This document shows positions 1 through 64,000 of a DNA stretch of 64,000 bases, in pieces. Under the pieces are notes generated by a model. The model saw only the letters and a program-made list of their open reading frames with translations. It was not told where the DNA came from and did no database searches. A program made the position numbers and the translations under genes. Where the stretch lies: positions 186,001 through 250,000 of the forward strand of contig JBFLGF010000001.1 in assembly GCA_050230475.1 (NCBI GenBank). The letters are read 5' to 3'. Source of the stretch: Ancylonema sp. (taxonomy: Eukaryota). Each line of letters begins with the position of its first letter. The first letter of the stretch is position 1.

Positions 1-3000
1 TGCTTCTACTTCCCCTGTCGCCCCCCCTCTCTCTCCACTCTGCCACTCCATGCGTGCCTTATCAAGTTGGGAGCAGAGGTGGTGAGTTTGGGGGGATGCC
101 ACCTGCTGCATCCCCCGTATGGCCCTCATCATGCAACGCTCCTCTTCACAACGAGACTCCCACACCCCCTTCTCCTCCACGTTGGCCAGCACCACAAAGC
201 GACTGTCCCTCTTCCTTGCCCTCCCCCTGCTCTGGATGAGTGCCGTCATGGAGACAGCTCCGTCGAATCGTATCACAAGGTTGCATGCGGGCACATCCAG
301 GCCTTCTTCTGCGACACTGGTGGCCACCAGAATGCGATACACCCCGGAACGGAACCGATCCAGCACGGGCTTCTGCTCCTCTTGCCAGCTCATCCCGTCA
401 AACCCAGAGTGACCGACCAACGTGGCTACCTTGAGCTTCTTCAGGGCTTCTACCTGCCCCAACATCTTGGCCACAAGCTTGGTTGTGCTTTTCTTCTGCA
501 CGAATATGAGCACACGGGAGTTGGAATTGTGGCGGAGAGATTTCGTGACCTCATCTATCACAGCAGTCATCCTGCTAGACCACTCCTCCCTGTCTCCCTC
601 CCCCACTCCATGACCTGTCCACGAAAGCGGCCATCTCAAGTCCCGGATGATCTCCAGCTTTGCCGCTTGCTCCTTGGAGCACCCCACCCTCTTCCAGTAT
701 CTGCACAGTTCCCTCCGTGAAGCCGAGGGGCTGTACACGTGGCACGTCCACAGCATGCTCATCATTTCCAGGGCGTGCTGCACCACGGCACGCAGGGGAC
801 CCGCCTTGCGGGCAGAGGCGAAGTCCTGAAGCTTCCGCAGTTCCCCCCTCAGGTTTCCCTCCACCAACTCTGCTGAGAAATTGGAGTCTAACTGGAAGTA
901 GTCACTGGCCACAGCCATCCTCTGCACCTTGGCCAGCAGAGTGTTCAAGTACCCCACCAACTCCCGTTTGAATGCCTCCTCGTCTGCAGAGGGCACCACC
1001 GGCACACACTCTGTGTCGGCTCTGGCAGTGAGATCTTCCAACTGCTGCCAGTAGAGATTCGGTACCCGGAATTCGGCGCCGCAGAAGGCCTGGGACAGGG
1101 AACGCAGCTGGATACCTGTTTGCGCCATGGAAATCTTGCCACCTGGGGACGCTGTGAGACCTGGCACATCACAGGGCAGGTCGCATACTGCAATGAGATC
1201 TAGAGAGGACAGTCTTCTGGCATTCACAGTTGCACAGGACGTGTTTGCAGATTACGAGGTATCAATCAGTTTGGGACGACCATAAAATTCAGGGCATCTA
1301 AATCGATGAAGGGACCAACGAGAGGGATGTGCAGAACCTCATACAACATTCTCGGAGGTGGAGGCAACACCACGCTTTTCAAAATCATGTATCTGGTGTT
1401 GCATACCTTTTTTACCATAATTGTATGGTCAAAATTGCACGCACTACCAGATACATAATTTTGAAGACTGAAAGTCTACAAACATCTACACACATGATTG
1501 AAGTATGAGTACAATTACACGAATTGACACCCACACCCTCACAACTCACCTAGAAGACGGGGCCTGTCCTCCAGGAGGCAAGGACGGAAATGTTCATTCA
1601 GGATACGAGCAAAAGGGTGGGTCTTGGAAGCGTGGTGGGCTTCATCGAATACCAACAGGCTGCACCAAGAGAGAGGGAAGCCCGCTGCCAGCTTGTTCAG
1701 AAAGACCTGCGCTGTCATGGCCAGCACGTCGTAATCATCTTTGAGGGACATTATGTCGGCAGCAGTGGAGAGGTTGAGCGAGGAGGAATTCTCTCCGGTG
1801 TATTCCTGCAAAAAAACGAAGAGCGGCAGTGGAGAGGCTGAGCGAGAAGGGATTTTCGTCAATGTATTTCTGGAGGCAACCGAAGAGCAGCAGGTATGTG
1901 GTTTACACAAGCTGTGATCCCGCCCATGTGCTGCTTTACACACCTGAACCCGCAGACCGGCATCCACCCTAAGTACTTGTGCTTGCTGATGCACAAGCGG
2001 CACCCTATCTGCCAGGAATACGACAAAACGTTTGGGATTGCAGTCCACCATGCAGCGGGCCACCATCCCCGCAACCAATGTTTTGCCAGTCCCCGTGGGC
2101 AGAACCACAATCCTCGAACTTCCCAGCATGGCCTCCACATATAGCTCCACCTGGTCGTTCACAAGGTAGTACTTAGGTTCAATGTGGAGTGATGGGAGAA
2201 AACGATCAAATGTGTTTTGATTCAGCAATCAGCTTGCTTGCAGCCAAGTTATAAACAGTTACCATTTTTTTTGTGTTTAAATGCCCCGATCAAACTGGAG
2301 TAACAGTGGCAACTGGTTCATACCAACCATGGATGACAATGTGGACAACAATCACTGTTTTGCGCGTGGCAGGTTTTCCATTGGCGCTGAAATGAAGAGA
2401 ATCAAATAATTTCAACACAAATGGGACCCTGTTGGCGGTTTTGCCCCATCGGTAGTTGCAACAGGTGGGCAGCCTGCCTGACCATGGTTGTCAAATAGAT
2501 GCTGCATAATAATGGCTCCTCAAATATGGCAGCCTGATGATGCCTGCATGAAAAGGCAGTAGGTCCGGGCCGCATGGGTATTACTTGGTAACCACCTGGT
2601 CACTGGTAATCACCTGGTAATCACTTGGTAACCACCTGGTCACTGGTAATCACCTGGTAATCATGCGGCACCCTCCCACAGCGGATGAACGGGGCAAGAT
2701 TCAGCGAGGAGATCACTTCGGCAGACGGGCGATTCAAGGGGGGGGCTACATTGAGTGCCTCGGCTTCTGTCGGCTGGGGGTCCCAGCCTGCCGGCCAAAT
2801 GGACTGCACGCGACGCTCGATGCTGGGAAACATGTCGAGCGCACCCCGCCATTTCTTCACTTTGAACAAACTCAGGCGTGTCTTCTTGGCGGAAAAACAA
2901 AGGAGGGGTTCCTCAGCTGACCCGACCTTACTCTCGGTCCCCACATCCATGCTACATTCATTGTGTATTATCTTTCTGGGATTGAAGCGACGGCTTTTGT

Positions 3001-3163
3001 GGTCGGGATGAGGGACAAGGTGAATAGTCGTGGCCCAAACGGACTCCTCCAGCTCCGGTTTGACGATAAGGTGCCACGCATCGGCCCCTTGGTCAAAAAA
3101 ACAGAGTGAGGACTCCGGCAAGATTATTGCCTCACAATTATGACAGATCAAGCTACACGCCAT
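1..3163 (-). CDS. RIG-I/Dicer-family DExD/H-box RNA helicase with N-terminal RIG-I-CTD-like zinc domain; 3' end lies beyond window start
   Basis: Exons 3163-2654, 2150-1944, 1805-1550 and 1160-1 join in frame at GT-AG junctions. Motifs: PHDYQ|VELY (Q), LPTGTGKT (I), DEAHH (II), GLTASP (III), LIFVQKK (IV), ATSVAEEGLDVPACNLVIRFD (V), QSRGRAR (VI), then a pincer-like helix EERCMMRAI. Exon 1 begins LICHNC...WHL...PHPDHK...KIIHNECSMDVG...KKW. The last exon stays open to base 1. Confidence 0.9.
2581..2660. repeat. 40-bp tandem duplication spanning the first splice donor of the helicase gene
   Basis: 2581-2620 and 2621-2660 are 39/40 identical and are built from tggtaa/cacctgg sub-repeats. Confidence 0.9.
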
Positions 3164-3784
3164 TCGGAAGACTACTGAATAGGCATCTTGGGCTATTCAC
3201 TCTAGCTGCTGCCTGTACGCGCCACCAGTGGCAAGCGAGTATGTTCAGTCGACACCGTCAAGTTTCAATATTGCAGCGACATTATTCATTCTTTCCTGTC
3301 AGCTGCAAGTGCATGTCTACAGAAAAACTCTGGATGAAAAACAAGGTGTAAATGCAGACATGGCACGATCCTTGTCCATGTTTACATGGCTGATCAAAGA
3401 TGCACAACGAGAGCCACTCCTGACTCCGACATTGAGCTTCACGTCCGAGACGCTTGGCGGATTCCGCATCTTCGGTTCGCGATGGGGGGTTGTCTTCAAG
3501 TCTAAAGTTAAGACTTGAGCAACTCTTAAAAAAAAGTTTATTTCCGCCTAAAGTAGCAACTTGCTACCGGGCAGCTACCCCTCTACCGATTTCCTACCGA
3601 TTTAGTTGCCCTAACCGGGTGGTCATCGGAAGGGGGTGGGGCCACGGAAGGCGGTAGGGAGCGGTAGGGAGGCGGTAGTTTTTTTTTTTTTTTTTCTTTT
3701 TTCGTCCCCCCCCTCCTCGGATGTGAATACTTAGATTGAAGGGATTTGCTCTAATAAACAAGCTACCCCGTTGCTAGTTACAAC

Positions 3785-5751
3785 TAGCGTTGTGAATGTT
3801 ACGTTCACACCTTACACTTACACTCGTACGTAAAGTGTAACGTAACGAAAAACGTAAAATTACAACTAACTAATACGTTTTATGCATACCGTACTGGGCA
3901 CCGTATATGATTTTTAATCAATTACCGAAACCCGAAAGTAATCATTTAAATTAATTACTTAATGGTAGAAAAAGGAAATCATTAATAAAACCCGTTTTCG
4001 GAATCATTTACGGGAAATTCGGGGTCACCTGGATGTGACTCTACAGTAAACCATTGATATAGTGACAATTTTATAGACAGGGGAAAATAATGTCACTATA
4101 TCGAATGCCAGGGGTGTCACTATACACTAAATAGTGACATTTGATAGGGCGACATTGAGCCAATGTCACTATATCGAAGGAAAGTGGAATTTAAGTTATT
4201 TTGAGCAACCAAATCAGGTGTGCAGAGTTTTTTACTGGAGAAGGTAAGTCAATTATATGGCGTTTTACCCGTTTTTTTTAATATCCACTTGCTTCAAAAA
4301 CCCTCTTTGAAGTAATAATGTCAGGACAGGTATAAAATATTAATTCAGACAGGTTATTAATTTATTATTAATTTATTTTCTATTATATTTGGGAGATTAT
4401 TGATTTTCACAACGTTAATTTGGACAGGTTTCACCCTAAAGTGACATCTCAATAGTAAAATCTGGGAAAATTTGGTCACTAAAACGTGTGTCACTATAGC
4501 GATTGTCACTATATCGAGTGAATTTTTATATAGGATTAGAAAAAGGGCAGAAAAAATGTCACTGTATCGTGATTGTCACTCTATCGAGTGTCACTATATC
4601 AAGGGTTTACTCTAGATGTGATGAAACTGGGTACACGACAAAGCAGGCAGGTGGGTACACGACGTCAGAAGCTACGTACCGGGCCCTAAAGTCCCACGAT
4701 ATGGGAAATATTACCGATTAGACGCGCTACACGACAAATTAAGACCATCCATAACGATTAAATTGTTGCCGGTCGAAATATCGCGACTGGTACAAGTGCT
4801 TGCCACGTGCACTTGTGACGTCAAAATGTACAGTAAACATGTAAGAATGACCCAGATAAAGACAAATCATTTGATTTTTGATTTCTAAACAAGGAGATCT
4901 TTCACGCTTTTTATTCCTACAATCCGGAATCATCCCCGAAAATCATTGATAATAATTAACGGATTCATGGAATCATTACCATAAATCATCGATAATAACT
5001 AACGGAATCCCGGGATCATTTTGAAAAATCATTACGAAAATAATTAATTTTGGAAAAACAGAAATCATGTAGGATGCCCAGGACGGCAACTGGTAAAGTG
5101 CACGTCCACATGTACACCATATATTATCGCACGCTCAAAGATCCGACGCCGTGGATCCACGTATCCAACCCTCGTTGTCAGAAACGTCTTCGCGAGGTCT
5201 CCCATATAAAGTTTCTTATACACAGTATAATAAATATTCGCTATAAGAAACTTTTCCTTCAACATTTTTGGGTTTCTTATATCGGGGATTAAATGTACCC
5301 AAATCTTATGTATAAATGGCTCAATCGTCTCCAAGACTGCATCTTATGTATAAATAGAGCCTCGTTTCTAAGATCGGGTAACTCGTTGTCTCTCTGCCAG
5401 TCAGTCTGTCACCATGATTATTACATTATAGTGATTGGATTCAATAAACTCGAACCTCATCGAATCTGGCGGCTAGCGAAATGTCATTTGTCAATACAAG
5501 GTCGATGTTATCCTCGCAATCGTCATTTACGGTAGATTCGTGGTTAAATATCTTACATGTAATGAAAAATTACAATGTAAACTATGTACATTACCGGTAA
5601 GTGTAATTTACCCATGTAAATTAAATTAAATTAAATTAAATCGTTTCGCCCGATGGTAATTTTCCAAAAATAAAAACGTAATTTAAGTTACGCGTTAAAC
5701 TACCGTTGTTACTACAGTCAAACCCAAAAATACCGTAATTTCACAACGCTA
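3785..5751. mobile_element. Non-autonomous hAT-type DNA transposon containing a nested MITE
   Basis: TIR TAGCGTTGTGAA ... TTCACAACGCTA; perfect 8-bp TSD GTTACAAC (3777-3784, 5752-5759); many subterminal AATCATT/GTAA motifs. Confidence 0.85.
4044..4612. mobile_element. Tc1/mariner-pogo-type MITE nested in the hAT element
   Basis: TA-flanked; ~24-bp TIR CAGTAAACCATTGATATAGTGACA / TGTCACTATATCAAGGGTTTACTC; repeated internal TGTCACTAT motifs. Confidence 0.85.
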
Positions 5752-8922: not shown

Positions 8923-11289
8923 TTATTGTGGCGAACTTTGAAATAACGTCACAGTTGCAATCTGTTTGTTTCTCATCACCTGCACACACATCAACTCCCG
9001 TGCACAAAATCACTCATTTGCAAAGAAAACACTCCACTCCTTCCCAAAAGCAACAAGAGCAACAATAACGGTACACCTTTCTGCACGTACTCTCAAAAAT
9101 CTGATGGAGACAAGCTTACCTCAAACGCTATGTCTCGGTATCCATAAACAAACGTGGGTCCGAATGGATTGGTTCCGGATCCCCGAGTTTGAATCGCCGC
9201 TCGCCCGCCACTCCCCAGACATTCCTACACCTCCCTCCCAACCCCCAACCCCAACACGACAGTGAGGAGGTGTGGACCCAGCTGCCAGCTTCCCCCCACC
9301 TCCTCTCTCCCCCCACCTCTACTTGGTCCCATTTGGTGTCTGCAGTAATGGGAGGGGAGTTGGAGGGCAAGGGGATGGAGAAGTTGCATTTGATATAGTT
9401 GGTGAAATCTGCCGCCCCGGGGCAGTTGGTGTGCAGCACAAACTTTTTAACCCCACAGCTCTGCCCTCGGGAAGTGAAGAGGATGTCTATCCCTCGTCGG
9501 AAGTAGGAGAATACAGTGTCCGTGGGGGGGGAGAGGGGGGGGGAAGACGCGTGGGAGTGGATGAGCATGGCGTCACCCTGAATCCAGCCCCCTCCCCAAA
9601 CGCAGTCAGCAGGGGGCAAGGATGGGGAGCCAGGAGGGCGGGCTCACCTGCTTGGGGCTGATTGAACACGGACGGCCCAGCTCTGACCACACGTCCTGTC
9701 AAAACGAAAGCAGGGCTGGTTGGTTGGTTGGTTGGTTGGTTGCAAAAGAGGGGGTTGATCTGCGGACCTGTTGGGAAGATCCAAAACCGATTTTCTGCCC
9801 CCCCACAGTAAAGAACAGCCCCTCTGCCAGCTGCGCCACCAAGGACAGCAAATGGGGCACAGGATGAGGATCCGTCCATCCATCCATCCTGCTTCCCTCT
9901 CGCAGGACATACTCACTTTCGCCTGGACTTCCTCCATGTACACGCTGCCAGGTGGCAGGGGAGGAGGCAGTGCCCTGCCTGACAAGGACCCAACCTCCCC
10001 TCCCCCACCCTCCATGGCGGTGGAGGCGTAGAGTTGAATGCGGGAAGCCACGGGGGTGGTGCCGTCGGGAAACTCGAGGGGAAGCTCCGCTGCACACGCA
10101 ACCCCACGTGACATTCAACACGCGGTATTCAACTTTTCAAGGGCTGAGAACAGACCCTCACTGTCGCGATTTGAAAGGAAGTCAGAGTACTTGGGCGGAA
10201 TGGGAAACTTCACAGCCACTCCCTGCAAACAGAAGTAGGTTCAGTATCCATGCGGGTGTGGAGGAGCAGCGCAGGGACGGAGCAGGGACTGGGTACCGGG
10301 TAGAAGAGAGTGTAAATGCCTTGCTTGCAGTCGAAGTGCCCTGGGAACGTGGGGCCGAGAACAGAGTAGACACGGACAAAAGTGGCGGCAGCAGTCGGAC
10401 CCCTGCAATGACCCTCACAGATGAAGTCATGAGCTCATGTGCTCTTCTGTCGAAAGCCTGAGTTTCCTACCCGATAGTCGAGGTGGCATAACGCAGCTGA
10501 AGGCGAGTGACGTCGTAACTTTCGATCAAACGCAACCTCTGCAGCGAATGAGATACAGATTCAGTCTAAATGTTTGCTTTGTGCCGAATCCACCCTTAAG
10601 CTCATCTGTGTATTCGGGTAGCCAGTGAGAAGTGGGGAGTGGAGTGAAGGTACGGAAGGGCACACCTGAGAAACAGGGTGGAAACGCAGATGCAGCCCAA
10701 GGTGTGGAAATGCAACCGAGATATCCCATAGTAGGGGCTCCTGGCAACACCATTCAATCGGACACGATATCGATGGGATTCGTGTGCCGAAAAGAAGATC
10801 GGTGAGCAGGATCAGGGGCAGGAGACGATACTCACCTCATCACTATACTTGACTTGCGTACTGTCACACAGCGCTCGCTGCTGCTCCACTCGGGCAAGGG
10901 CCTCGCACAGAGGCATACCTGCGAGCCGTCCACGGAGATAACATCTCCATCCTCTCATGCGACAAGTACATCCACGCATTTTCTGCCGCACCACGCATCG
11001 ACTTTGGATTTTTTTGTATATTATCTTATCGAAAACAGTAAATAGACAGTAAATACTGAACCACACAACCAGGATTATACGTATCATTCGTCTCGTCTCG
11101 GAGGGTGGTATCTCCTAAACCTCATCGAGCAGGGTGAAACGTCTGTATACAATAGCCATAGCAGCAGAAGCTATTAGCTTGATAAAATGCGTAGATAAAG
11201 CAGCATCACGCATGTCAAACCACAATCGTACCCAGGTTAAAAAGGCCTACGCCTACGCCGGGCCGTATTTCCAGAGTGGAAAGTACCAT
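8923..11289 (-). CDS. PHAF1: UPF0183 / PHAF1 (C16orf70, At3g51130-like) family protein, multi-exon
   Basis: Spliced peptides [156 protein letters not shown] match the remembered plant UPF0183 sequence. ATG at 11289, TAA at 8925-8923. Confidence 0.9.
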
Positions 11290-26797: not shown

Positions 26798-28814
26798 CTA
26801 TTGCCCGATTGGGAAGCCTGGCAATACTGTTTTATACAAGAAGCTTAAGAACCCTGTTGTGCCCAAAAGGCCTTTGCCTGTTGTGATCTCAATAAGTAGC
26901 AAAAATACAAAGCCTGCCATTGCTGCTCTACCGTTAATCAACTCATTCTTTGGAGTGAATCCAAAGCCACCCTCTGTCTCGTCCACAACCATCCTCACCT
27001 GCACACCATTTCAGATTTGTCAAATACTTTCCCCTAACATACTTTGGAGACAATCTAGTATTTATCTGGATTGATTGTGGCTGAGAGGCCTTGCAGCTAT
27101 AGAGAGTCGCTCACACTATGAGGAATCTAAATCTGGACATATCAGAGCCATAGTTTTTCTTCGCTGTCAGGACCATGTCAAACAACCAGATATGAGCCCC
27201 TTCTGGATTTTTTTTCCAAAAGCTGGATTCAAAATCAAAAGCAGGGCACGAACAACCATCAGGTTCTCAGCAGCACTTTCCCCAGCCTTCCATCCCTCAT
27301 AACGGACAGTTGGATACACAGTTTCGAGCTTTGTCTACTGGTTCCAACACCTATCATATAGAGGTTCAGAGCAGGTGTTGATCACTCCTGCCGCCTCTAC
27401 GGAGCAATAAAGTACAGGTGACAACCTCAAAATTAAAAACCCTGCTGGAAATATGCAATACTTAGAGGAGGCAAGTCCAGAATGCACGGACATTCGTCAA
27501 CCTTAGAAAAAAGAAAGGGGAGGTCGAGATGCGCTATTGCAGAACTCACCTCATCAACAGCCACATCCGTGGCTGTCCTCCCAACATTAATACTCCCGCC
27601 AAAAACCAGCTCAGCCCCGTACTCTGATTGTGACTCAGACTGGACGCCGACATCTACGCAGATTTGGTACTCCTCGATTTTCACCGGGTACACCACCATA
27701 TCTCTCAGGGACTTGGTGAGAGCTCGCAGCACAACGTTCTTGGGATGCCATTCCTTCACCTGCCCCGTCTTCAGGTCGTAAGTGGAGTCCGTGCTTGGGC
27801 ACACAATGCAACCATCCTGCAGACAGACTCTAGCGTCAGCTGAGATCCAATTAGATCGGTAATGCAGAAGGCCCAACCATCAGGCCAGTTTGGATAGTTA
27901 CAATTCATTAGTTAATTTTTGCCTCCATTTGTCAGCTATTCCTGTAGTTTGTTGATTTGTGGACAGGGCTTCAGCTGGTCGGGTATTGCTTGCGGCATGT
28001 CTGAAGCAGTGCCAAAGGACACATGGCACATGTGTAAAGGCACATTTATATATATGAGTTTGGCCGGGAAAATGAGGACGTGGCTGGCAATTCTGAAGTT
28101 TCAGTCTCAAGATTGCACACTGCCCGGAATGAGGTAGATTGCAAACACCGTCTTCATTTACATTCGGCAGCAAAGCCAGCAGGATGACATAAGATACGAA
28201 ACATTTTAAAATAATAACCAGAAAGTTTCACACTCTAGTGAAGACTTCAAGGTTTCCCATGTTTAGAAGCTGCATCGGTGGCTTCCTCCAGGGTTTCGTC
28301 TCGAAAGCGCTAGTAGAAGTCACACGCGTCCAGAATAAAGATATTTCATTCTCATGTCGATGTATTTGTTTGCAACGCACGGCAAGTTTGGGAAAGCTCT
28401 TGTGCGACCTGAATGACTTTTCGTACGGACCTGTGTGAGTTTCGCATTTATGAAGCCTTCTGCATACGCTCCCTCGGCAGGCGAGCTGTTCTCAATGGCG
28501 TAAATCTCATTCCGGTACCATAATAACAAAATCGTTTCACCATCTTGTCTCACGAGTCGGCGTTCTCCTTTCGGCAGTGCCTCTATAGGAATTACTGGAA
28601 CCCAGTTACCTTCTTGCTTTTCTGCCACGGACGTGCTGGCAGCTTCACACAATACTGGCGAAATGAACCTCGTAGGTGCAATCCTTTTGGACGATATGGA
28701 TCGCGTTCTGAAAGAGTGAGTTGGTTTAATACACCGTGAGTTGACATTTGAAAGAGCCCCTGGACCTGCAGACAGAGCTGGAAGTCCATGCAGCTTCAAA
28801 ATTGACGCTGCCAT
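26798..28814 (-). CDS. PSB33: PSB33 (TEF5/LIL8) thylakoid Rieske-like plus LHC-like protein with chloroplast transit peptide
   Basis: Exons 28814-28431, 27816-27550 and 26998-26798 are in frame: WVPVIPIEALPKGERR..LLLWYRNEIYAIENSSPAEGAY..LTQ|DGCIVCPSTDSTYDL..VDE|VRMVVDE..GFGFTPKNELINGRAAMAGF. Confidence 0.95.
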
Positions 28815-29062
28815 TGAATGCTGTATGCTTCTTCTCTTCCTCGTCCCTAGTTGTTGCCACTTCTCTTGTTGTTGCGTTTTCTCTGTTACACCCTGTTAAC
28901 AACAAGCCCGGCGCATCTTATTTTCGTTTATCGTACTGGGCACCGTAAATGATTTTTAATTAATTATTGAAACCCGAAAGTAATCATTTAAATTACGGCT
29001 TTGCTATACACAAGCACCTGAATTGCTATGCACAAGGGCGGCGCATCTACTTTTCGCTCGTN

Positions 29063-29181: not shown

Positions 29182-32100
29182 GTGACAACAAAACGGTGTA
29201 TTGAGGTACCGCGTCATGCACCTGATGTGCAGCTTGGGCTGCTTCACTGGCGCGGCGTTGTTGTTCCTCGAGCTCCGTGATTCGCTGGTCGCTGCAGTCG
29301 AAAATTGGAAATGTGGGAGCTGAGTCGATAGATTCTTTCCACTTAATCTGTGCGACTGGATCACTTGCAGGTAACGATTGTAAAGAGGGCAAGGGGATGG
29401 GTAGGGTAAGGTGTTGCCCCGTTTTAAATTTTCGACACTGTTCGATGGTGTATCCTCCCGCGCCATAGTGTTGGAAGAGAGCACCTTTACTGTATTTAGT
29501 GAGTCCGTACTGTCGTTGATTCGTTTGGTTTGGAGTTTTGGGTTGACCATAGGAATCTCCCTTTAATTGTCCTAAAGGTTGTCGTTGTCCGCCAATTTGT
29601 AAATGCGGAGGTCGGTAAGGTGTTGTCTAAGGTTGAACCGTCGATGTTTTCAATGTTTCGGTGGAGTCCTAGTGTGTAAGTTGATGTCGGTGGGAAGTTT
29701 GTGGATGGTGTAAAAGATGGAGAGGGATCTTGTCGATTTTGATACCGAGGAGTTTGCGCTCGTATTCCGCCCGCGGCGCGGATGTCTGCCTCTTGTTTTG
29801 CAAGGTATAGTTCACTTTGGTTCGCCTCCTCCATTATTTCTTTCCGTGTAAGTGGATTCCTTTGCAGTGTTTAGAAAAATCTTTCTTTGTTCTCTTTGAA
29901 ATACCAATTGTTGACGTGCGATTGTAAATTCACTGGAATTAATTGTAATAAGCGGAGCGCCAATTGTTCGGACACCATGGCTCTCGCTTTTTCAACGACG
30001 GTGGCTGCATCATTGTATCGAGAGTAAATTGATGCCACGGTGTCGGTTGGTGTAATTAGGATATTATCCAATTTGTTGAGATATTCCGCCGAGGATGTAC
30101 GGAATCTTTCCTTGATGCGTTTAATGAATTCCACGAGTTCATGTGGTTCGTCGAATGTTGGTTTCACCGGGGGCGTTAGTTTTTCATGCCGTCCTTGCAT
30201 ACGGTGGTAAAACATGTCCACGTAGTAGTCTCTCCATGAGTCCCGAATGTCAGACGTTTGAGAGTCGCTGGTGTTCTCTTCCATGAATTGTTGCCATTCA
30301 CGTTGTGCTTCACCTTTGCAATAAGCGCCGAGACTTTGAACGAGGTCCATTTCTGTGTATCCGGACCGTTTGTCTCGTTTTAGGATTGCGTGGCTTTGCA
30401 CGGCGTTGATGAATTCGTCTTGAACCGTACCAAGAGCTCCATGGTAGGGTGTAATAGGGGTTAAGCTCGTCATGCCGTCACCACACCCTCCAATACGATT
30501 GCGAGGTTTAGGTACGGAAGTGCTAGCCGGCGGATCGGGACTTGCCGGTGGTGGTGAGTGAAGGATCAGCCATAGTGGGCCAATCCCTTGCCTGCCGTAC
30601 AGGTCTTAAATTTGCCGGCTCTCCGACTTCTCGTGAGTTATATAAAAATCCAAACTGTCCGTGACAAATGGCAAGACACCAATAAACTAGAATCCCACTG
30701 GAAACAAAAGCGATGATGGTATGAATTATTTGTTATGAAAACTCCGTAGAGAATATATTGAATTTGCCTCACAAGCCGAGGACAAATCGGTTTATTCAAC
30801 CGAAGCGTAGGTTGACTTAAGTCTACTCGCTAACGTCATTTCCCGTGAACACAATAATGTGACTATTCATATTCACCCCATTGGTGCACACTCAACTATG
30901 CAAATCTAGTGCAACTTAGTCCGGTACTAGAGTAAACCGGTACGAATTCATAGTACTCGCTTCCGCGCCCATTGCGCCTAAGTGCAACCTACATAATTGT
31001 CGATTCACACATCCACATGCATATTGTATCGACTCACAACATGGACACACATGCACATTAGTCACATCTCCGGTCCACGCTAATTCTACAATTATGACTA
31101 TCGCCACAACTCGGCATTTCCCTTGATTAAAGCACTAATTTACTTCATTCCCCCTCTCTTTACTCCAAGTCAAATGCCCGATGACCTTATGCTTTGTTTA
31201 TTTTTGTTTTCTTCTCCTCCTCCTCCACAACATGTCCACTACATGTCTAGCACTCTACTCTCCTAGTGCTATCATACCCATAAGGCATTTTCCCTCTACA
31301 AGCACTTCCACCCCTACGTGCTTCGTAAGTTGGTCCGCCGCCATTGCCTTGGTAGGCACAAAGTGCAACTCCACCTCTCCACTTTCCACCTTCTCCCTCA
31401 CGTAATGAAACTTGATGCCAATATGCTTGCTCCTCTTGTGGAAGACCTGGGTTCTTGGCGATTTTCATAGCCGATTGATTATCACACAAGAGCAAGACTT
31501 TCTCACTCTCGACTCCCATCTCCCTTTGGTACATCCCCAAGTACAGTACACCCCCTCTTGAACCGCAAAAGACATCGCCATGTACTCCGACTCCGTGCCG
31601 TGGAGCTCAGCTCAAAGCCACCACCTCTTGAAGCTTGCTCCCCCACGAAATCGCCACTCCCGCACTCATGAAGACATACCCCGAGCGCCCCCTCTTAGTC
31701 TCCATGTCACTCCCGTAGCTCGCGTCGCGTCGGTGTAGCCCCACACCTCTACCTCCTCATCATTCCCGTAGAAGAGCCCCTTGTCAATTGTCCCCACCAA
31801 GTACCTCACTACCCTCTTCGCCGCCTCCCAATGCTTCACCCCCGGATTCTGGCAAAAACGGCTAAGTGTAGAAACCGCCATCGCAAGGTCGGGACGAGTC
31901 CAAACCGCGAGATACATGAGACTCCCCACGAGGTTCCGGTAGGGGTAGCGCGCCATCTCTTTCTCCCCCTCCTCCGAGGTGGGGGAGTCTTCCACCCCTA
32001 AGACCACTCCCGACTCAAAGGGGGTGGACACCGCCCCTTCCAAGTCCAAGCCGTACTTCCTCACCAAATCCTCGACATATTACTTCCTTTGCTTTGCCCG

Positions 32101-35100
32101 AGGAAAACACCCCCGTCTACTCCCCGAGTGATCTCTATCCCCAACAAGAAAACCGCACTCCCCAAGTCTTTCATCTTGAAGTTGTCACTAGGCCCCGCTT
32201 TGACCTGACCTCCCCGAGAGACTTAGACTTCACACTCTTCCACATAAGAAGGAGATCGTCCGTCTACATATAGATAGATGAAGACCCTCAAGTCTCCTAC
32301 CCCCACTACATACACTCCGTGATCCGAGAAGAACCGCTCAAACCCCATCGAAAGAAGCACCACATCTATCGTCTGGTTCCACATCCTCGGCGCCTGTGCT
32401 TCAAGCCATAGAGGCACTTCCACAAGCGCCACACTCTCCCTAACACACCCCGTACCCTGGTGCCCCCTCCGGAATTTCCACACGTACACCTCCTCTTCTA
32501 AGTCCGCGTAGAGAAAGGCCGTGCTGACGTCCATCTGGTCGAACTCCCAATTGTCGCTTGCCCCGAAGGCGATGAGCGCCTGAATGCTTTCATGTTTCGG
32601 ACTGTAGGAGCGAATGTCTCTTCATAGTCTCTACACCTTCCATCTGCTTGAACTCCCGAGCGACTACCCTCGCCTTGAATTTTTCAACGTTCCCGTCTTG
32701 GTCCTTCTTGATGCGGCGGAGCACCCATTTCATGCTAATGATCCGCTTGCCCTTGGGCCTCTCAACCTCCTCATACACATTATTCTCCTCCTCTAAGCTC
32801 CCCAACTCAGAGTCTAATAAAGCTTCCCTCCATATTCCTTTTGCTCAGGTCCTGCAAGTGCCTCAGCTACCGTGACAGGACAGACCAGGTCCACGGCTGG
32901 CCAGCATAGGAGTCTGCGAGCCGCAGCGGCGGGCCCCGCTGCTTGCTTGTGCGCCTGGGCTGCGAGCCCTGGCCTCCCTGCCCTGACCCCGTCGCTTGAG
33001 CCTGTGGCCCCGTACCCCCGGCACCTGAGCCCGTCAAAATTCCCTGGGAGCCCAGATCCCGTCGCAGAAACTGAAATCCCCCGTTGTCGTCGTAGTCATC
33101 ATCACCCGAATCTCTGCAGTTTCGTCGTCTTCCTCTTCTCATCACGGCTATCACTGACTAGGCTGGGGGTATCGTCATCATCGTCCTCGTCATCGTCGTC
33201 ACCGTCCTCACCCCCACCTGCAAGAGGTTGGGCTCCTTCCCCGCCTGCAGGGGGATGGGGAGGGGGAGGGGGAAAAGGGGGAGGGGGTGGCCCGTCGCCT
33301 GCGCCGTCCATCTGCCGCCCAGTTCTGGGGGATCTCCACACGCTCTGCCACGTAGTCACCCTGCAGAAGCTGCTGCCTCCACCAGCCCCCCTCCACGTCC
33401 TCATCGAAGTCTGCTCCGCCGACATTGTAGACTTTCCCCTTTCCCCTTGCCGACATTGTAGACTTTCCCCTTCACCGGATCCCAGACCCGGTACGAAGGG
33501 CTGCTGTCCGAGTAACCGAGTAGCACCCCCTCCCAGCGCACCTTTCCGAGCTTCCCTGCCCTGTCCCCCTTCTCGATGGGCGCATACACCTTGCAGCCGT
33601 AGGCCCGCAGGTGCGCCAAGGTCGGCTTCTTCCCACACCACAGCTCTTGCGGCGTCAGACCAGTAACCGGCCCCCGGTTCCTGAGGTACGATGCCGCCAG
33701 AAAAACCTCCCCCCAGCTTCCGCCCCCAAGCCCAGCCTCCGTCATCATGCTACGGACTCGGTCTTGGAGGGTACGATTGAGTCGTTCGGCGACCCCGTTC
33801 GCCTGTGGAGTGCGGGGGGGGGTGAACTCCTGGGAGATGCCACGTAGACGAAACCAGTCTTTTAACGTCTGCTTCATGAACTCCCCCCCGTTGTCAGTAC
33901 GGAACCGTCCCACCCGATAACCGGATTCGCGCTCTACCAACGTTGTCCACTCCTTCACCCTCAATTCGACATCAGATTTGTTCTTTAGCAGAATTACCCA
34001 TGATTTCCTGCTGTAATCGTCGATGAGAACAAACACGTAGAGCTTCCCACCCCAGCTGGCAGGCTTGATCGGGCCTGCCAAGTCAGCGTGAAGAGATCCG
34101 AGCGGCTTCCCTGCTCGGAAGGCTGGATCCTTTTGCGGGTGGGGTTTCGCCAGCGACTTGCCCAACGTGCAGCCACGGCAGACTCCCAGCTCCCCAACCA
34201 GGCCACCCTCCAGCCCCCTCACGAACCCTGGCCTCGCCAACTTGTGGAGGGTGCTAACCGCAGCGTGCCCTGTGCGCCTGTGAAGCAGCCCAATGTCCGT
34301 GGCTGCAAACAGCACCTCCGCGGTTGGCGCCAGAAAAACGGGTAGACGGCTGGGGGAGGGAGGGGGAGGGGAGGGCTGTCGGGTCCCTGGTCGGCGGGGT
34401 ACTGAATATTGCACGTGAGAGTGAGTCGTGCCGTGGCAGATTCCTCGAAGCTGCCCACGTATCGACCCTCACGGCTGACCATCCACACAACCCAGCTCCA
34501 CGGGATAGTTTAGACGCGTCCCAGCCAAACGCATTCTCTGCGTCGAGAACAGATGTACCGCCAACTCGGGGACCAATAGCACGTTGTCTAGAATAACCGG
34601 GATTGGGTACCCTTGCGGGTCGGTTAGCTCCAGCCGAACGGTACCCTCCCACGTGCAAATCACCTCCCCCACCACCTGGCGGATTCTGACTGGCCGAGCC
34701 AGCTTCCGCTTGTCCCACAGCATCTCGCAGAATCGTTTGCCACGTGGCGATTCGTGCCAGAATCTCCCAAAAATTGGGAACTCGTTGCAGAACCGAAGCT
34801 TGTGGCCTCGACCTCGATGACCTCGAGAGCGTACGCCTCCTCGAACTCACCATACTTCGCCTCCGCCATTGCGGATTGCATTTTCTTCCTCTGGGCGGCA
34901 AAGGAGACTACTCTCTTGACCTCCTTCGTGCCGCCCCCCTTCGACTCGTCGGCAGCGGACGTGCTCGGCTTGTCGCCCCCGTGGCGACAGGTCGCTGCCA
35001 GGTGCCCCTCCCGCCCGCAGGTGGAGCACTTCTTGTCGCGATACGGGCAATCAAGTGACTTGGCTTCCCGCAACAATAGCAATCGATGTCCTCCTGGGAT

Positions 35101-37141
35101 GCGCCACGTGCTCCGTGTCGATCGCCTCCCCTGCCGCCACGTGTGGCACCTCCTCTCGCTGACGCTGCCTCCCGCGCTGCTTCCGCTCCCGCCAAATCCG
35201 CGCTGCTTCCGCTCCCGCCAAATCTTCCGCTCCCGCCCCCAGTGAATCCGCCCCGGAATCCGCCCCGCTGCGAGCGATTTCCCCCTCAAAAGCTGTCACG
35301 TGCGAATGCAGCCTCGTTGTGCTCGCTTTCTTCTGCAGTATTTCGACGAATCTCTAGTGCCTTCATCGTCGCAAATAATTGCTCAGTTGTCGGAAGTGGC
35401 GTCTGACCCGCGACACTCTCCGACCACAAATTTTCCATCGAGGCGAGGGGGCGCGTCAGGAGCGCATTTGTCTTCTGAACTGGAGTAAGATGGACCTTCT
35501 ATAGAACGCAGTCGCTGGCGAGACCGTCGAATCGATTTTGCATGAGCTGAATTGTCTCGTTTCCCATGCTAAAATTGAAGAATCGATTTGACGCATTCAT
35601 CGCTAGAATTGAAGAGACGGGCTGATAATCTGCGACGATCTTCGCCCACTTTGCTGCGACAGTCGGACTGCGACAGAATAGTGCTGATAGCAACAGGGCT
35701 TTAGCGTAATTTTAACAGCATTGAAGTCGCTTTCGCCTCGTTCACCTCAAATTTCTCGATCTCAGCGTTTCTCGCGTCCACCATGGCCCTGCGTGACCGC
35801 AGGGACTCCAGTTGACGAGAGCGACGTAGCTTGCTGCGCCCGGGGCGCCAACTCCGGCTACTGCAACGACTCCTGCAGCGACGGTCAACGGTGGACCCGG
35901 AAACGGCGGCCGTTCCCTTGATGTGGGCCCACACCTTTTTTTCGCGAAACATGGGCTCCATGATCGCCAGCCACACGTTTATGTTGTCACCTGTCAACCG
36001 CAGACGTGGTTTCAGGTATTCGTCGCCCGACGCTCTGATGCCACTTGAAGGATCAGCCATAGTGGGCCAAGCCTGCCGTACAGGTCTTAAATTCGCCGGC
36101 TCTCCGACTTCTCGTGAATTACATACAAAGCCAATCCAAACTGTCTGTGACAAATGGCAAGACACCAATAGACTAGAATCCCACTGGAAACAAAAGCGAT
36201 GATAGTATGAATTATTTGTTATGAAAACTCCGTAGAGTATATATTGAATTTGCCTCACAAGCCGAGGACAAATCGGTTTATTAACCAACCGAAGCGTAGG
36301 TTGACTTAAGTCTACTCGCTAACGTCATTTCCCGTGAACACAATAATGTGACTATTCATATTCACCCCATTGGTGCACACTCAACTATGCAAATCTAGTG
36401 CAACTTAGTCCGGTACTAGAGTAAACCGGTACGAACTCATAGTACTCGCTTCCGCGCCCATTGCGCCTAAGTGCAACCTACATAATTGTCGATTCACACA
36501 TCCACATGCATATTGTATCGACTCACAACATGGACACACATGCACATTAGTCACATCTCCGGTCCACGCTAATTCTACAATTATTACTATCGCCACAACT
36601 CGGCATTTCCCTTGATTAAAGCACTAATTTACTTCAGTGAGTCGTGCGGGGTCTGTGTGTAAGGATTCGGTGATAAAGGCGGCGACCTTGGAGGTGATGA
36701 TCCAGGTCTCGATCCCGGAGGTGATAACGGCGGTGGAGGTGGTGTGGCTGCTCGTGACGGTGAGCCAACCACTCGTGGTGGTCGAGGTGGTGATACAGAT
36801 CGACCTCGTGGAGATGTAAGACGTGTGTACGGCGCACTATGTCTCCGAAGGAGTTCCACTACCGGTGATAAGTTTTCGTTTTGATTGTTGACTGGTGGAG
36901 GTAGCTCCAAGTTTGTAGGTCGAAAGTCTGGTGCTTCCGGTGATTTTTTTCGTAAAATATCCAGGTTGATATCTGCGACGTCCGATTTGATGTTGCTGAA
37001 ACTGTCGGAGTCACTATCGCCAAATATGTCTTTGGGTATAATAAAATCTTGTGTAGGAAGTCGGTCCAACGTTCCTACTGCTCCTTGGCTCTCCGGATTC
37101 GCCACTTTTTCGAGTCGACCTTCTATTCTATACCAGGGCAT
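29182..37141 (-). pseudogene. Gypsy-type gag-like ORF split by a Copia insertion
   Basis: Removing 30559-36636 plus one TSD copy joins ORF 37141-36637 in frame to 30553-29871 (..PHDSPPPASPDP..GDGMTSLT). Gag-like LGAYCKGEAQREW motif. One premature TAA, then the same frame continues to 29496. Candidate PBS TGGTGCCAAAACCC at 37657-37644. Confidence 0.7.
30559..36636 (-). mobile_element. Full-length Ty1/Copia LTR retrotransposon with frameshifted gag-pol
   Basis: LTRs 36046-36636 (5') and 30559-31147 (3'), TG..CA ends, TSD GTGAG; PBS TGGCATCAGAGC (36043-36032, tRNA-iMet-like); PPT AAAGAGAGGGGGAA. Gag zinc knuckles, protease DSG, HRRTGH..CRGC, integrase (DLAGP, RTDNGGEF, NGVAER), RT (MDVSTAFL, YVD, YRNLVGSLMYL) and RNase H (CDNQSA) in Copia order. 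Confidence 0.95.
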
Positions 37142-48243: not shown

Positions 48244-48497
48244 TACCGTGGTAGGCACGGTAGGAGTTACCGAGGGCCGTTTTATCGAGGGTTCATATTG
48301 TATACATCGTTGGTTCGAAAGGGGTTCTGTTCCTCACATCGGCTGGGGTTCAGATTTCAGGTTCAGTGACGCACAACAGGAGTAAACACAAGCATGGTAA
48401 TCTGAGAAGGGGGAACTTCCACCTAGGCCAGATCTGTGTCTTCAGGTCTGAGGAGTTTTGAGGATTGTTCACTGTGAAGTGATTGTCTTGCTAAGCG

Positions 48498-50989
<2,492 letters not shown>

Positions 50990-62144: not shown

Positions 62145-64000
62145 GAGGTGGTCAAGGAGGACGAGGTGGCAGCAGTGGATCTAGTCGAGGTCATTCATGC
62201 TACACATGTGGAGAAACAGGCCATTACAATCGAGACTGCACGAAAAAAGATGCAGAGTGCAAGTACTCTGGAGCGATCGGTCATGTTGAGTTTACCTGCT
62301 TCGACAAAAAGAATGAAGCTCCACGCATGCAGAGAAAGGGAGTGCCATAGGGAGGTCTGCATTTGTAAGTGAAGCTGAGACGGAAGAAGATGACTGCTGC
62401 GGGTATGGTGAAGCTGTCGTTGCTAAAATTTGCGAGGGAAATGTAGCAGATCATGATGATGCATAAAAAGATTTTCTCTTTGACGATGGCTCCAATCATC
62501 AATCAAGTGGACAAAAAATCCATTTCAAGACTCTCGAAGACATTCCACATGAGGTTATTATGCATCACCTTGTCGGCACTGTTCGTGTCAAGCAATGGGG
62601 AGCAGTCGAGCTCGATACAGATAGAGAATGTGGCGGAGTGACTCTTCAGAAATGTTTGTACATCCCTGGCACGAGAGTAAATCTGTTTAGTGGGCAAAAA
62701 GCAAGGGAAGTAGGCTGGCCGTATACCTGTAGTGGAAAGACCGGGGGCATAAGTCCTGTCTTCAACAAATTTGGGAAGCAGGTCTGCACGCTACAGGAAA
62801 CATCGACATGTCGAAAAATTCTGATCTGCACTCCAATTCGACATCAAAAATGCATTGAGGGGGAGGTTGTTGTAGCTGCCATCGACATCAATCGACTCCA
62901 CACTAGGCTAGGGCATGCGAACGAGAGGGTGTTGAAAAATATGTTTCGAGATGAACTTGTGAGAGAACTTGAGGGAGGAATTTGAGGGGTCATGACAAAT
63001 TGTGAAGGCTGCAAGCTGGGTAAAGCTCATGAAAAATCTCATCCACGTCGAGAAGCACGTGCACGAGAGCAAGTGTGTCTTGGAAGAGTGTCGGTGGATC
63101 TGGCAAGGCCATTCAAACCTGCATCGATTAGGGGCGGAAACTTCAGCATCGTGATCGTCGATGAGTTCAACATAAAATCATGGGTAGAAATTTTGCGACA
63201 CAAAGATGATGCAGGCCCTCGTCTCAAGCAGTGGATTGCAATTCAGGAGAGAGTCTAGGAAGTGAGTGAAAAATCTGAGGTCTGATCGAGGTGGAGAATT
63301 CATCGATGGTGACTTCAAAAAATGGCTAAGAGGCTGAGGGGTCAAACATGAGACAACGCCACCAAACACACCTCGAAGGAATGCCATCACAAAAAGGATG
63401 AATCGAACTCTCCAAGATAGAGCACGATCGATGTTGCAACACATGCAAGTGCCTCCTGGACTCTGGGCCGAAGCAATCTCCTTCGTTTCTTACCTTCGAA
63501 ATCGCTGCCAAGTCAACGGTCTCTCCAAAACACCTGAGGAGCTCTGGTCAGGAGTTGTTCCAATAATTGACCATCACCGTTCGTTTGGCTGCAAAGTATA
63601 CGTTAGACTTGTGAAGCAAGAAAGAGAAGGGGAAATGGGAGCTCTGGCGTGGATGGGAGTGCTGGTCGGGTGGAACTCCGACAGTCCATGCCATCGAGTC
63701 TAAGACCCTGTGTCAAACAAAGTTCACAATGTTGGAGCTACACATGCAGATTTTGATGAGGATGTGAAAATTGGCTAATGGCGTGGCCAAAATGTTGGGA
63801 AGAAAGGAAAACTGCATGATATCCAAGAAGTTGCAAACATGATATGGCCGGATCTGCAAGAGGGTAGCTAAAGAGTGGGAGGGGGCAATTCTCGAAGTGG
63901 GCAACGGGTACAAGAAAATTTGAATTCCGTCGATGAACAGATCCCCGATGCTGTGGGAAATCCCTTGCTTCAGCTTTTGGGAGTTGTTTCTCCTCAGAAA

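Follow-up and report, generated by a model that had tools for sequence, protein, structure and literature searches.

Animal proteins of the RIG-I family are defined by a helicase accompanied by the domain PF11648 (PMC3793227). DRH-3 of C. elegans, which combines a helicase with a C-terminal domain (CTD), serves as a cofactor of RdRP, and its CTD binds 5'-triphosphate RNA (10.1101/2021.03.14.433363). Helicase and polymerase can also share one chain, as in Dictyostelium RrpC, a helicase-RdRP that is required for the 5' spreading of siRNAs (PMC3661229). The helicase-RdRP order has been described in oomycetes, Dictyostelium, Hydra, and Nematostella, where these helicases form one clade apart from those of Dicer (PMC4791657). 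The available part of that paper names no further groups for helicase-RdRP and contains the term "RIG-I" 0 times.

We analyzed a 64-kb stretch of DNA, referred to here as the window, at the beginning of which a gene on the minus strand had been read in a first-pass annotation as a RIG-I-like receptor (RLR) of inverted domain order. The gene appears intact under its predicted splicing, and both the gene and its RLR-type domain, which stands in inverted order, are real. Judging from sequence comparison, we estimate a probability of roughly 80% that it is the front part of a helicase-RdRP, the polymerase part of which would lie beyond the window edge. Most likely it is no new receptor and belongs, as a streptophyte representative, to a polymerase family already known.

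In our model, four minus-strand exons (3163-1) join into 711 stop-free codons, and the frame leaves the window at coordinate 1. Exon 1 (3163-2654, residues 1-170) is supported by the model, a predicted fold, and alignment to homologues, and comprises the zinc domain, a linker, and the opening half of the Q-motif of the helicase; the RLR-CTD-like zinc domain itself, as delimited by its predicted fold, lies at 3154-2789 (about residues 4-125). Intron 1 (2653-2151, 503 nt, GT-AG, phase 0), which like the other introns is a splicing prediction, divides the Q-motif between HDYQ and VELY. Exon 2 (2150-1944, residues 171-239) holds the remainder of the Q-motif, motif I (2102-2079, residue 187), and motif Ia, and is followed by intron 2 (1943-1806, 138 nt, GT-AG) and by exon 3 (1805-1550, residues 240-325), which carries motif II DEAH (1646-1632; DEAHH at residue 293). 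Intron 3 (1549-1161, 389 nt, GT-AG, phase 1) interrupts motif III (GLTASP, residue 325). Exon 4 (1160-1, residues 325-711) is open at the window edge and contains motif III, the helical Hel2i insertion, Hel2 with motifs IV to VI (motif V region at residue 604; motif VI, QSRGRAR, at 234-214, residue 634), a pincer-like helix (EERCMMRAI, residue 664), and the beginning of a Gly-rich linker. The earlier claim of an intact, intron-containing gene with all the SF2 motifs it named is borne out, since the frame and every motif are recovered in the four-exon model.

An alternative acceptor for intron 2 at 1870 was rejected because the resulting frame shift meets a stop, and an in-frame donor 18 nt inside intron 1 would possibly add six residues. 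The full-length protein of the window was absent from the protein searches and from the search of representatives. A four-codon upstream open reading frame at 3172-3186 (minus strand) ends 8 nt before the start codon, and an imperfect palindrome in intron 3 (1378-1465, 77% over 88 nt) is possibly a small transposon relic. A 67-nt repeat (93%) occurs at 3887-3953, upstream of the helicase gene, and at 28929-28995, upstream of a Rieske-like gene. The latter is an intron-split Rieske_2 gene at 27436-28895 (minus strand) with a transit-peptide-like start, which we take to resemble plant PSB33; its nearest Atlas cluster is mostly Streptophyta, which is no more than a lead. A DEAD-box helicase gene with Gly/Arg-rich ends at 48495-50986 (plus strand) is presumably DED1/RH37-like. 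Also present are pieces of Copia-type retroelements (RVT_2; Pol_BBD with gag_pre-integrase) at 31669-35295 (minus strand) and 62467-62982 (plus strand), and a weak PHAF1 match (E 0.002) at 9647-10114 (minus strand).

Sequence searches with the N-terminal domain of the window were uninformative on their own: exon 1 alone matched 0 Pfam families and gave no useful PDB sequence match, an Atlas search with exon 1 returned nothing above 0.77, and the window's own sequence falls below Pfam detection for PF11648. Its homologue P0006 exceeds the PF11648 cut-off (27.7 bits versus 25.6), and Ostreobium P0026 is narrowly below it. When a 13-row family profile was compared with the PDB, the domains of DRH-1, DRH-3, duck RIG-I, and LGP2 came out on top with weak E values of 4e-4 to 0.13, DRH-1 and DRH-3 being the best (4e-4 to 3e-3), and MsrB, Yippee, and Mis18 ranked lower. 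The AlphaFold2 model of residues 1-130 (pLDDT 89.5, pTM 0.83) retrieved only RLR/DRH entries among the Foldseek rows shown. In a structure search of 48,161 chains, its top nine matches were RLR/DRH domains (RIG-I/MDA5/LGP2/DRH; Z 10.2-12.8, rmsd 2.5-4.1, 103-115 residues aligned), followed by Mis18 as the next family (Z 8.1, rmsd 3.5, 91 aligned). An RLR-CTD fold in front of the helicase had been claimed beforehand, and the predicted model matches RLR/DRH domains first in both structure searches; the domain itself thus stands, at a length of about 125 residues in the predicted model rather than the ~110 first proposed. We regard the domain as beyond chance because its fold matches RLR/DRH first and because homologues place it before the same helicase. 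The lack of CARDs was also read correctly, as the N terminus is the zinc domain and exon 1 has no Pfam match.

The residues singled out by the first-pass annotation (C7, C10, H31, H52, K64, H67, C70, and W105) are all where it placed them. Across 43 aligned domains, C7 is kept in 42, C10 in 41, C70 in 43, H31 in 33, W105 in 30, and K56 in 23. Position 67 is Cys in 41 domains and His in 2, which makes the CCHC site a local variant: it holds for the window and not for the family. The matching of H52 and K64 to RIG-I fared poorly, as these residues are found in only 5/43 and 9/43 domains. K104-W105 is conserved, and the C-terminal K-K-W segment aligns with its MDA5 counterpart. A basic loop (K56, R58, and R59) lies in the appropriate region, although not aligned residue by residue.

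Exon 4 is recognized by Pfam as Helicase_C (6e-20). In its predicted model (pLDDT 83), a helical insertion separates the RecA domains and motif VI is followed by a long helix; confidence is low in the last 35 residues and for the second pincer helix. In Foldseek, MDA5 and DRH-1 were the top matches of this model (TMq 0.64-0.72), with RIG-I and LGP2 also among the best. As far as a predicted model can tell, the Hel1-Hel2i-Hel2-pincer match is one of RLR/Dicer-type architecture, not of RLR membership. Among proteins of 677-2000 aa, exon 4 finds its best homologues by sequence in helicase-RdRP fusions. The closest full-length homologue is Mesotaenium ME000353S05912 (P0257; 3411 aa), 41% identical over residues 10-707, an alignment that takes in exon 4 up to residue 707; the second closest is Riccia sorocarpa KAL3700286 (P0270; 2642 aa, 36%). 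Pfam finds RdRP and MTPAP-like domains in both and RNase III in neither, and tblastn of the two against the 64-kb window matched their N-terminal part only. The downstream "effector" is therefore most likely an RdRP with a nucleotidyltransferase, by extrapolation from these two homologues. That the closest named homologues are streptophytes also agrees with the green-lineage setting proposed for the gene.

We surveyed the family with a domain profile that found 211 representatives at E<=0.001, and architecture was counted in the best 150 of these. Among these best 150 of 211, the zinc domain precedes the helicase in 70/70 proteins showing a helicase, and an RdRP profile match is present in 31 of the 32 proteins of at least 1000 aa; it is on this last count that we read the gene as the front of a helicase-RdRP. 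The 31/32 figure leans toward the helicase-RdRP family because the profile seeds were mostly RdRP-bearing (10 of 12 homologues). Pfam applied to 20 of the long proteins identified RdRP in 19 and nucleotidyltransferase in 11. A search with the N-terminal half of the Mesotaenium protein brought in 47 new proteins, with the zinc domain in 17/20 that bear RdRP and in 0/27 others, 26 of which have RNase III. Named members of the family include proteins from Mesotaenium, Riccia, Mesostigma (partial), Bryopsis, and Ostreobium on the green side, and from Phytophthora, Pelomyxa, Phlyctochytrium, Oopsacas, Macrostomum, and Artemia elsewhere. The arrangement is thus not particular to algae or early plants, as had been supposed, being found in oomycetes, a sponge, a flatworm, a crustacean, an amoeba, a chytrid, and chlorophytes as well.

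Some family members have no visible RdRP. P0273, P0339, P0011, P0039, and P0009 (737-874 aa) may be shortened by introns or contig ends, and P0319 (2644 aa), which has domain and helicase, possibly carries a decayed polymerase. Four proteins of 217-374 aa (P0323, P0327, P0346, and P0351) end in the zinc domain with no helicase seen, and are possible stand-alone versions of the domain. The Mesostigma viride model P0301 (677 aa), which has the zinc domain and most of the helicase, is probably a split annotation. Scans of metagenome contigs and viral contigs confirmed no related loci, and the scan of prokaryote contigs returned at least two loci, a Dicer-like gene and an archaeal Hef. The Dicer-like gene (L001:990-6289) is split, looks eukaryotic, and sits on a contig from a Bryobacterales-labelled genome, a probable contamination of the bin.

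Helicase-core trees were built from hand-picked rows for which motifs I to VI were required, P0001 being added even though it is without motif I. With clade support taken from quick searches without bootstrap, the window fell within a 27-row clade (support 99) of RdRP fusions and three shorter relatives in FastTree (94 rows), and within the same helicase-RdRP clade (95) in a quick IQ-TREE search (44 rows). A 49-row tree with the new homologues united window, Mesotaenium, and Riccia (SH-aLRT 99) inside a 28-row helicase-RdRP clade (95). It is from this sister position beside a zygnematophyte and a liverwort that we judge the source to be likely a streptophyte. The window helicase groups with Phytophthora ramorum RDR1 and its relatives. 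A clade of the window with RLR/DRH was rejected in an AU test (72 log-units worse, p-AU 0.00086), which used 29 of the 49 rows under LG+G4 with long-branch and redundant rows dropped. The idea of an RLR, or of an undescribed stand-alone sensor, is not supported by these results, as all four trees place the helicase with those of helicase-RdRPs. RLR helicases fall outside the group of Dicer and helicase-RdRP at a support of only 92-93, and the trees give no direction of evolution. A set of invertebrate zinc-finger helicases (P0014, P0019, and 12 relatives), some named "RIG-I-like" by NCBI, has no PF11648 match and forms its own clade apart from RLRs.

It is unlikely, though still to be taken seriously, that the gene is a helicase-RdRP whose N-terminal domain is a structural or protein-binding module of the Yippee/Mis18 type, with no selection of RNA ends. 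Pfam at E<=0.05 is about even between the two across 43 family members (Yippee-Mis18 in 25, RIG-I_C-RD in 24), and from such sequence matches Pfam alone cannot tell an RLR-CTD from Yippee in the domains of this family. The residues of the triphosphate pocket are not clearly retained: the counterpart of DRH-3 R1016 appears to be Thr76 by profile alignment and structure numbering, which leaves 5'-triphosphate specificity unsupported. The domain is also near neutral in net charge (16 K/R, 15 D/E), though several RLR domains are likewise, and charge does not distinguish it from them. This module is opposed by the structural scores (Z 10.2-12.8 over 103-115 residues for RLR/DRH versus Z <=8.1 over <=91 for Mis18, MsrB, and cereblon), by the K-K-W segment shared with MDA5, and by the joining of the zinc domain to an RLR-type helicase in 70/70 proteins (best 150 of 211). 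Less probable again is a stand-alone, permuted RLR-like sensor of zinc domain and helicase, with no polymerase, that signals or passes RNA to Dicer via partners. Both parts do have predicted RLR-type folds, the window does not reach the 3' part of the gene, and short forms may exist, since P0273 (874 aa, from a 22-kb contig) combines domain and helicase and stops about 90 residues past motif VI. However, RdRP is present in both nearest full-length homologues and in 31/32 long matches (best 150 of 211), the alignment to the Mesotaenium protein extends into the linker (residue 707 of 711), and the AU test rejects a grouping with RLRs. A second, C-terminal CTD could conceivably lie beyond the window edge, as the 78 residues visible after motif VI fall short of the 86 after which the CTD match of one LGP2 begins. 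We give almost no credence to the gene being an ordinary Dicer or FANCM/Hef with an additional N-terminal domain; a conventional Dicer or FANCM was among the outcomes that the first-pass annotation named as refuting its reading. In the PDB, exon 4 has its best sequence match in Arabidopsis DCL1 (E 1e-20), but the zinc domain is found in 0/27 long homologues without RdRP, and the window stays outside the separate clades of Dicers (99) and of Hef (100), in trees that had no named eukaryotic FANCM.

There is also the matter of intron 1, and whether the front of this probable helicase-RdRP is spliced as modeled. P0222, 74% identical over residues 15-251, has REYQVELY in a single frame across the exon 1-2 join, and the intron 1 position is also read through in P0362 (a cluster mate of P0222) and in P0265 (43% identical). 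Where the window has intron 2, all three run on into intron sequence, the intron position being the same in P0362 and P0265. The tail of P0362 matches exon 3 in the wrong frame, and the three are most simply genomic sequences without intron 1. The sequence ACCAGGTG is an 8-nt direct repeat across both intron 1 junctions, and junction-like sequence is found in two 40-nt tandem copies at 2575-2654. On this comparison, intron 1 is likely a recent gain, since it is absent from relatives 74% and 43% identical. Intron 2, for its part, holds a 64-nt tandem duplicate, now decayed, of its own acceptor and of the exon 3 start (1826-1889 versus 1762-1825, 49/64 identical). Alternatively, the 503 nt could be an unspliced insertion separating the zinc domain from the helicase in a damaged copy, which we consider very improbable. 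The insertion is missing in two relatives, the direct repeats at its ends and the tandem junction repeats resemble a repair scar, reading through it runs into a stop, its acceptor has a weak pyrimidine tract, and a single extra residue stands immediately before motif I. The acceptor of intron 3 is equally weak, however, and the intron 1 edges are CAG/GTGA and CAG/G, so that excision gives the YQVELY of the homologues exactly, within 711 codons that have no stop or frameshift and in which the helicase motifs are all intact.

If the gene is the front of a helicase-RdRP, we can propose how it would act. A dsRNA end or stem would be gripped between the zinc domain and helicase as in RLRs, in permuted domain order, with ATP turnover serving to load, proofread, or move this module; Dicer would then receive dsRNA copied from the selected RNA by the polymerase on that chain, and such copying would amplify the silencing of transposons or viruses. 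Reasoning by analogy, we rate the chance that the zinc domain selects RNA as even. In the literature covered (mostly titles and abstract openings, with subscription journals outside its scope), we found no description of an RLR-type domain in an RdRP or of a streptophyte helicase-RdRP, and a sensor domain common to the whole helicase-RdRP family appears to be undescribed in the accessible literature. More speculatively, and with less confidence than doubt, the RLR zinc domain and helicase could be an RNA-end-sensing unit that predates animals and was kept sensor-first on a polymerase chain in eukaryotes at large, streptophyte algae and a liverwort among them, with animal RLRs as a rearranged, CARD-bearing offshoot of an RNAi module.

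Taken together, an RLR-CTD fold at the head of a widespread family of RNAi polymerases would link antiviral sensing with the amplification of RNA silencing, and it suggests how helicase-RdRPs may select their templates. If the idea of a sensing unit older than animals is true, streptophyte algae and a liverwort would have a RIG-I-type detector wired straight to silencing amplification. The RDRs known from flowering plants are helicase-free, and our results point to an RdRP type unlike them in these algae and this liverwort. The origin of RLRs also becomes testable, through domain phylogeny and binding assays.

The systems nearest to the window each have part of what we see. The animal receptors RIG-I, MDA5, and LGP2 (PF11648) have the zinc beta-sheet fold and the Hel1-Hel2i-Hel2-pincer helicase that are predicted for the window, whereas the window has its zinc domain before the helicase, has no CARDs (which RIG-I and MDA5 have and LGP2 is without), has His for the third zinc cysteine, belongs to another helicase clade, and is likely fused to a polymerase. 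Yippee/Mis18, MsrB, and cereblon (beta-tent) have in common with the window domain a core fold with two zinc-binding pairs, but align with lower Z over a shorter length and have neither the K-K-W segment nor a tie to a helicase. Like the window, Dictyostelium RrpA, RrpB, and RrpC, oomycete RDR1, and the Hydra and Nematostella RDRs have an N-terminal DExH and helicase-C in a non-Dicer clade according to the available parts of PMC4791657 and PMC3661229, the named sequences that we compared having not included the Dictyostelium proteins. These published helicase-RdRPs, in the same parts of those texts, include no plant or green-algal member and come with no mention of a RIG-I-like domain, and their RdRP is described where that of the window is inferred; the N-terminal domain of Phytophthora RDR1 is nonetheless the same as that of the window. 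DRH-3 offers a functional parallel, with a CTD and helicase acting with an RdRP in the production of secondary siRNAs (10.1101/2021.03.14.433363, available part). It is a separate protein in the RLR order, and the window likely has these parts on one chain and in the other order, so that what C. elegans does with DRH-3 and a separate RdRP is the same job that we propose here for a single chain.
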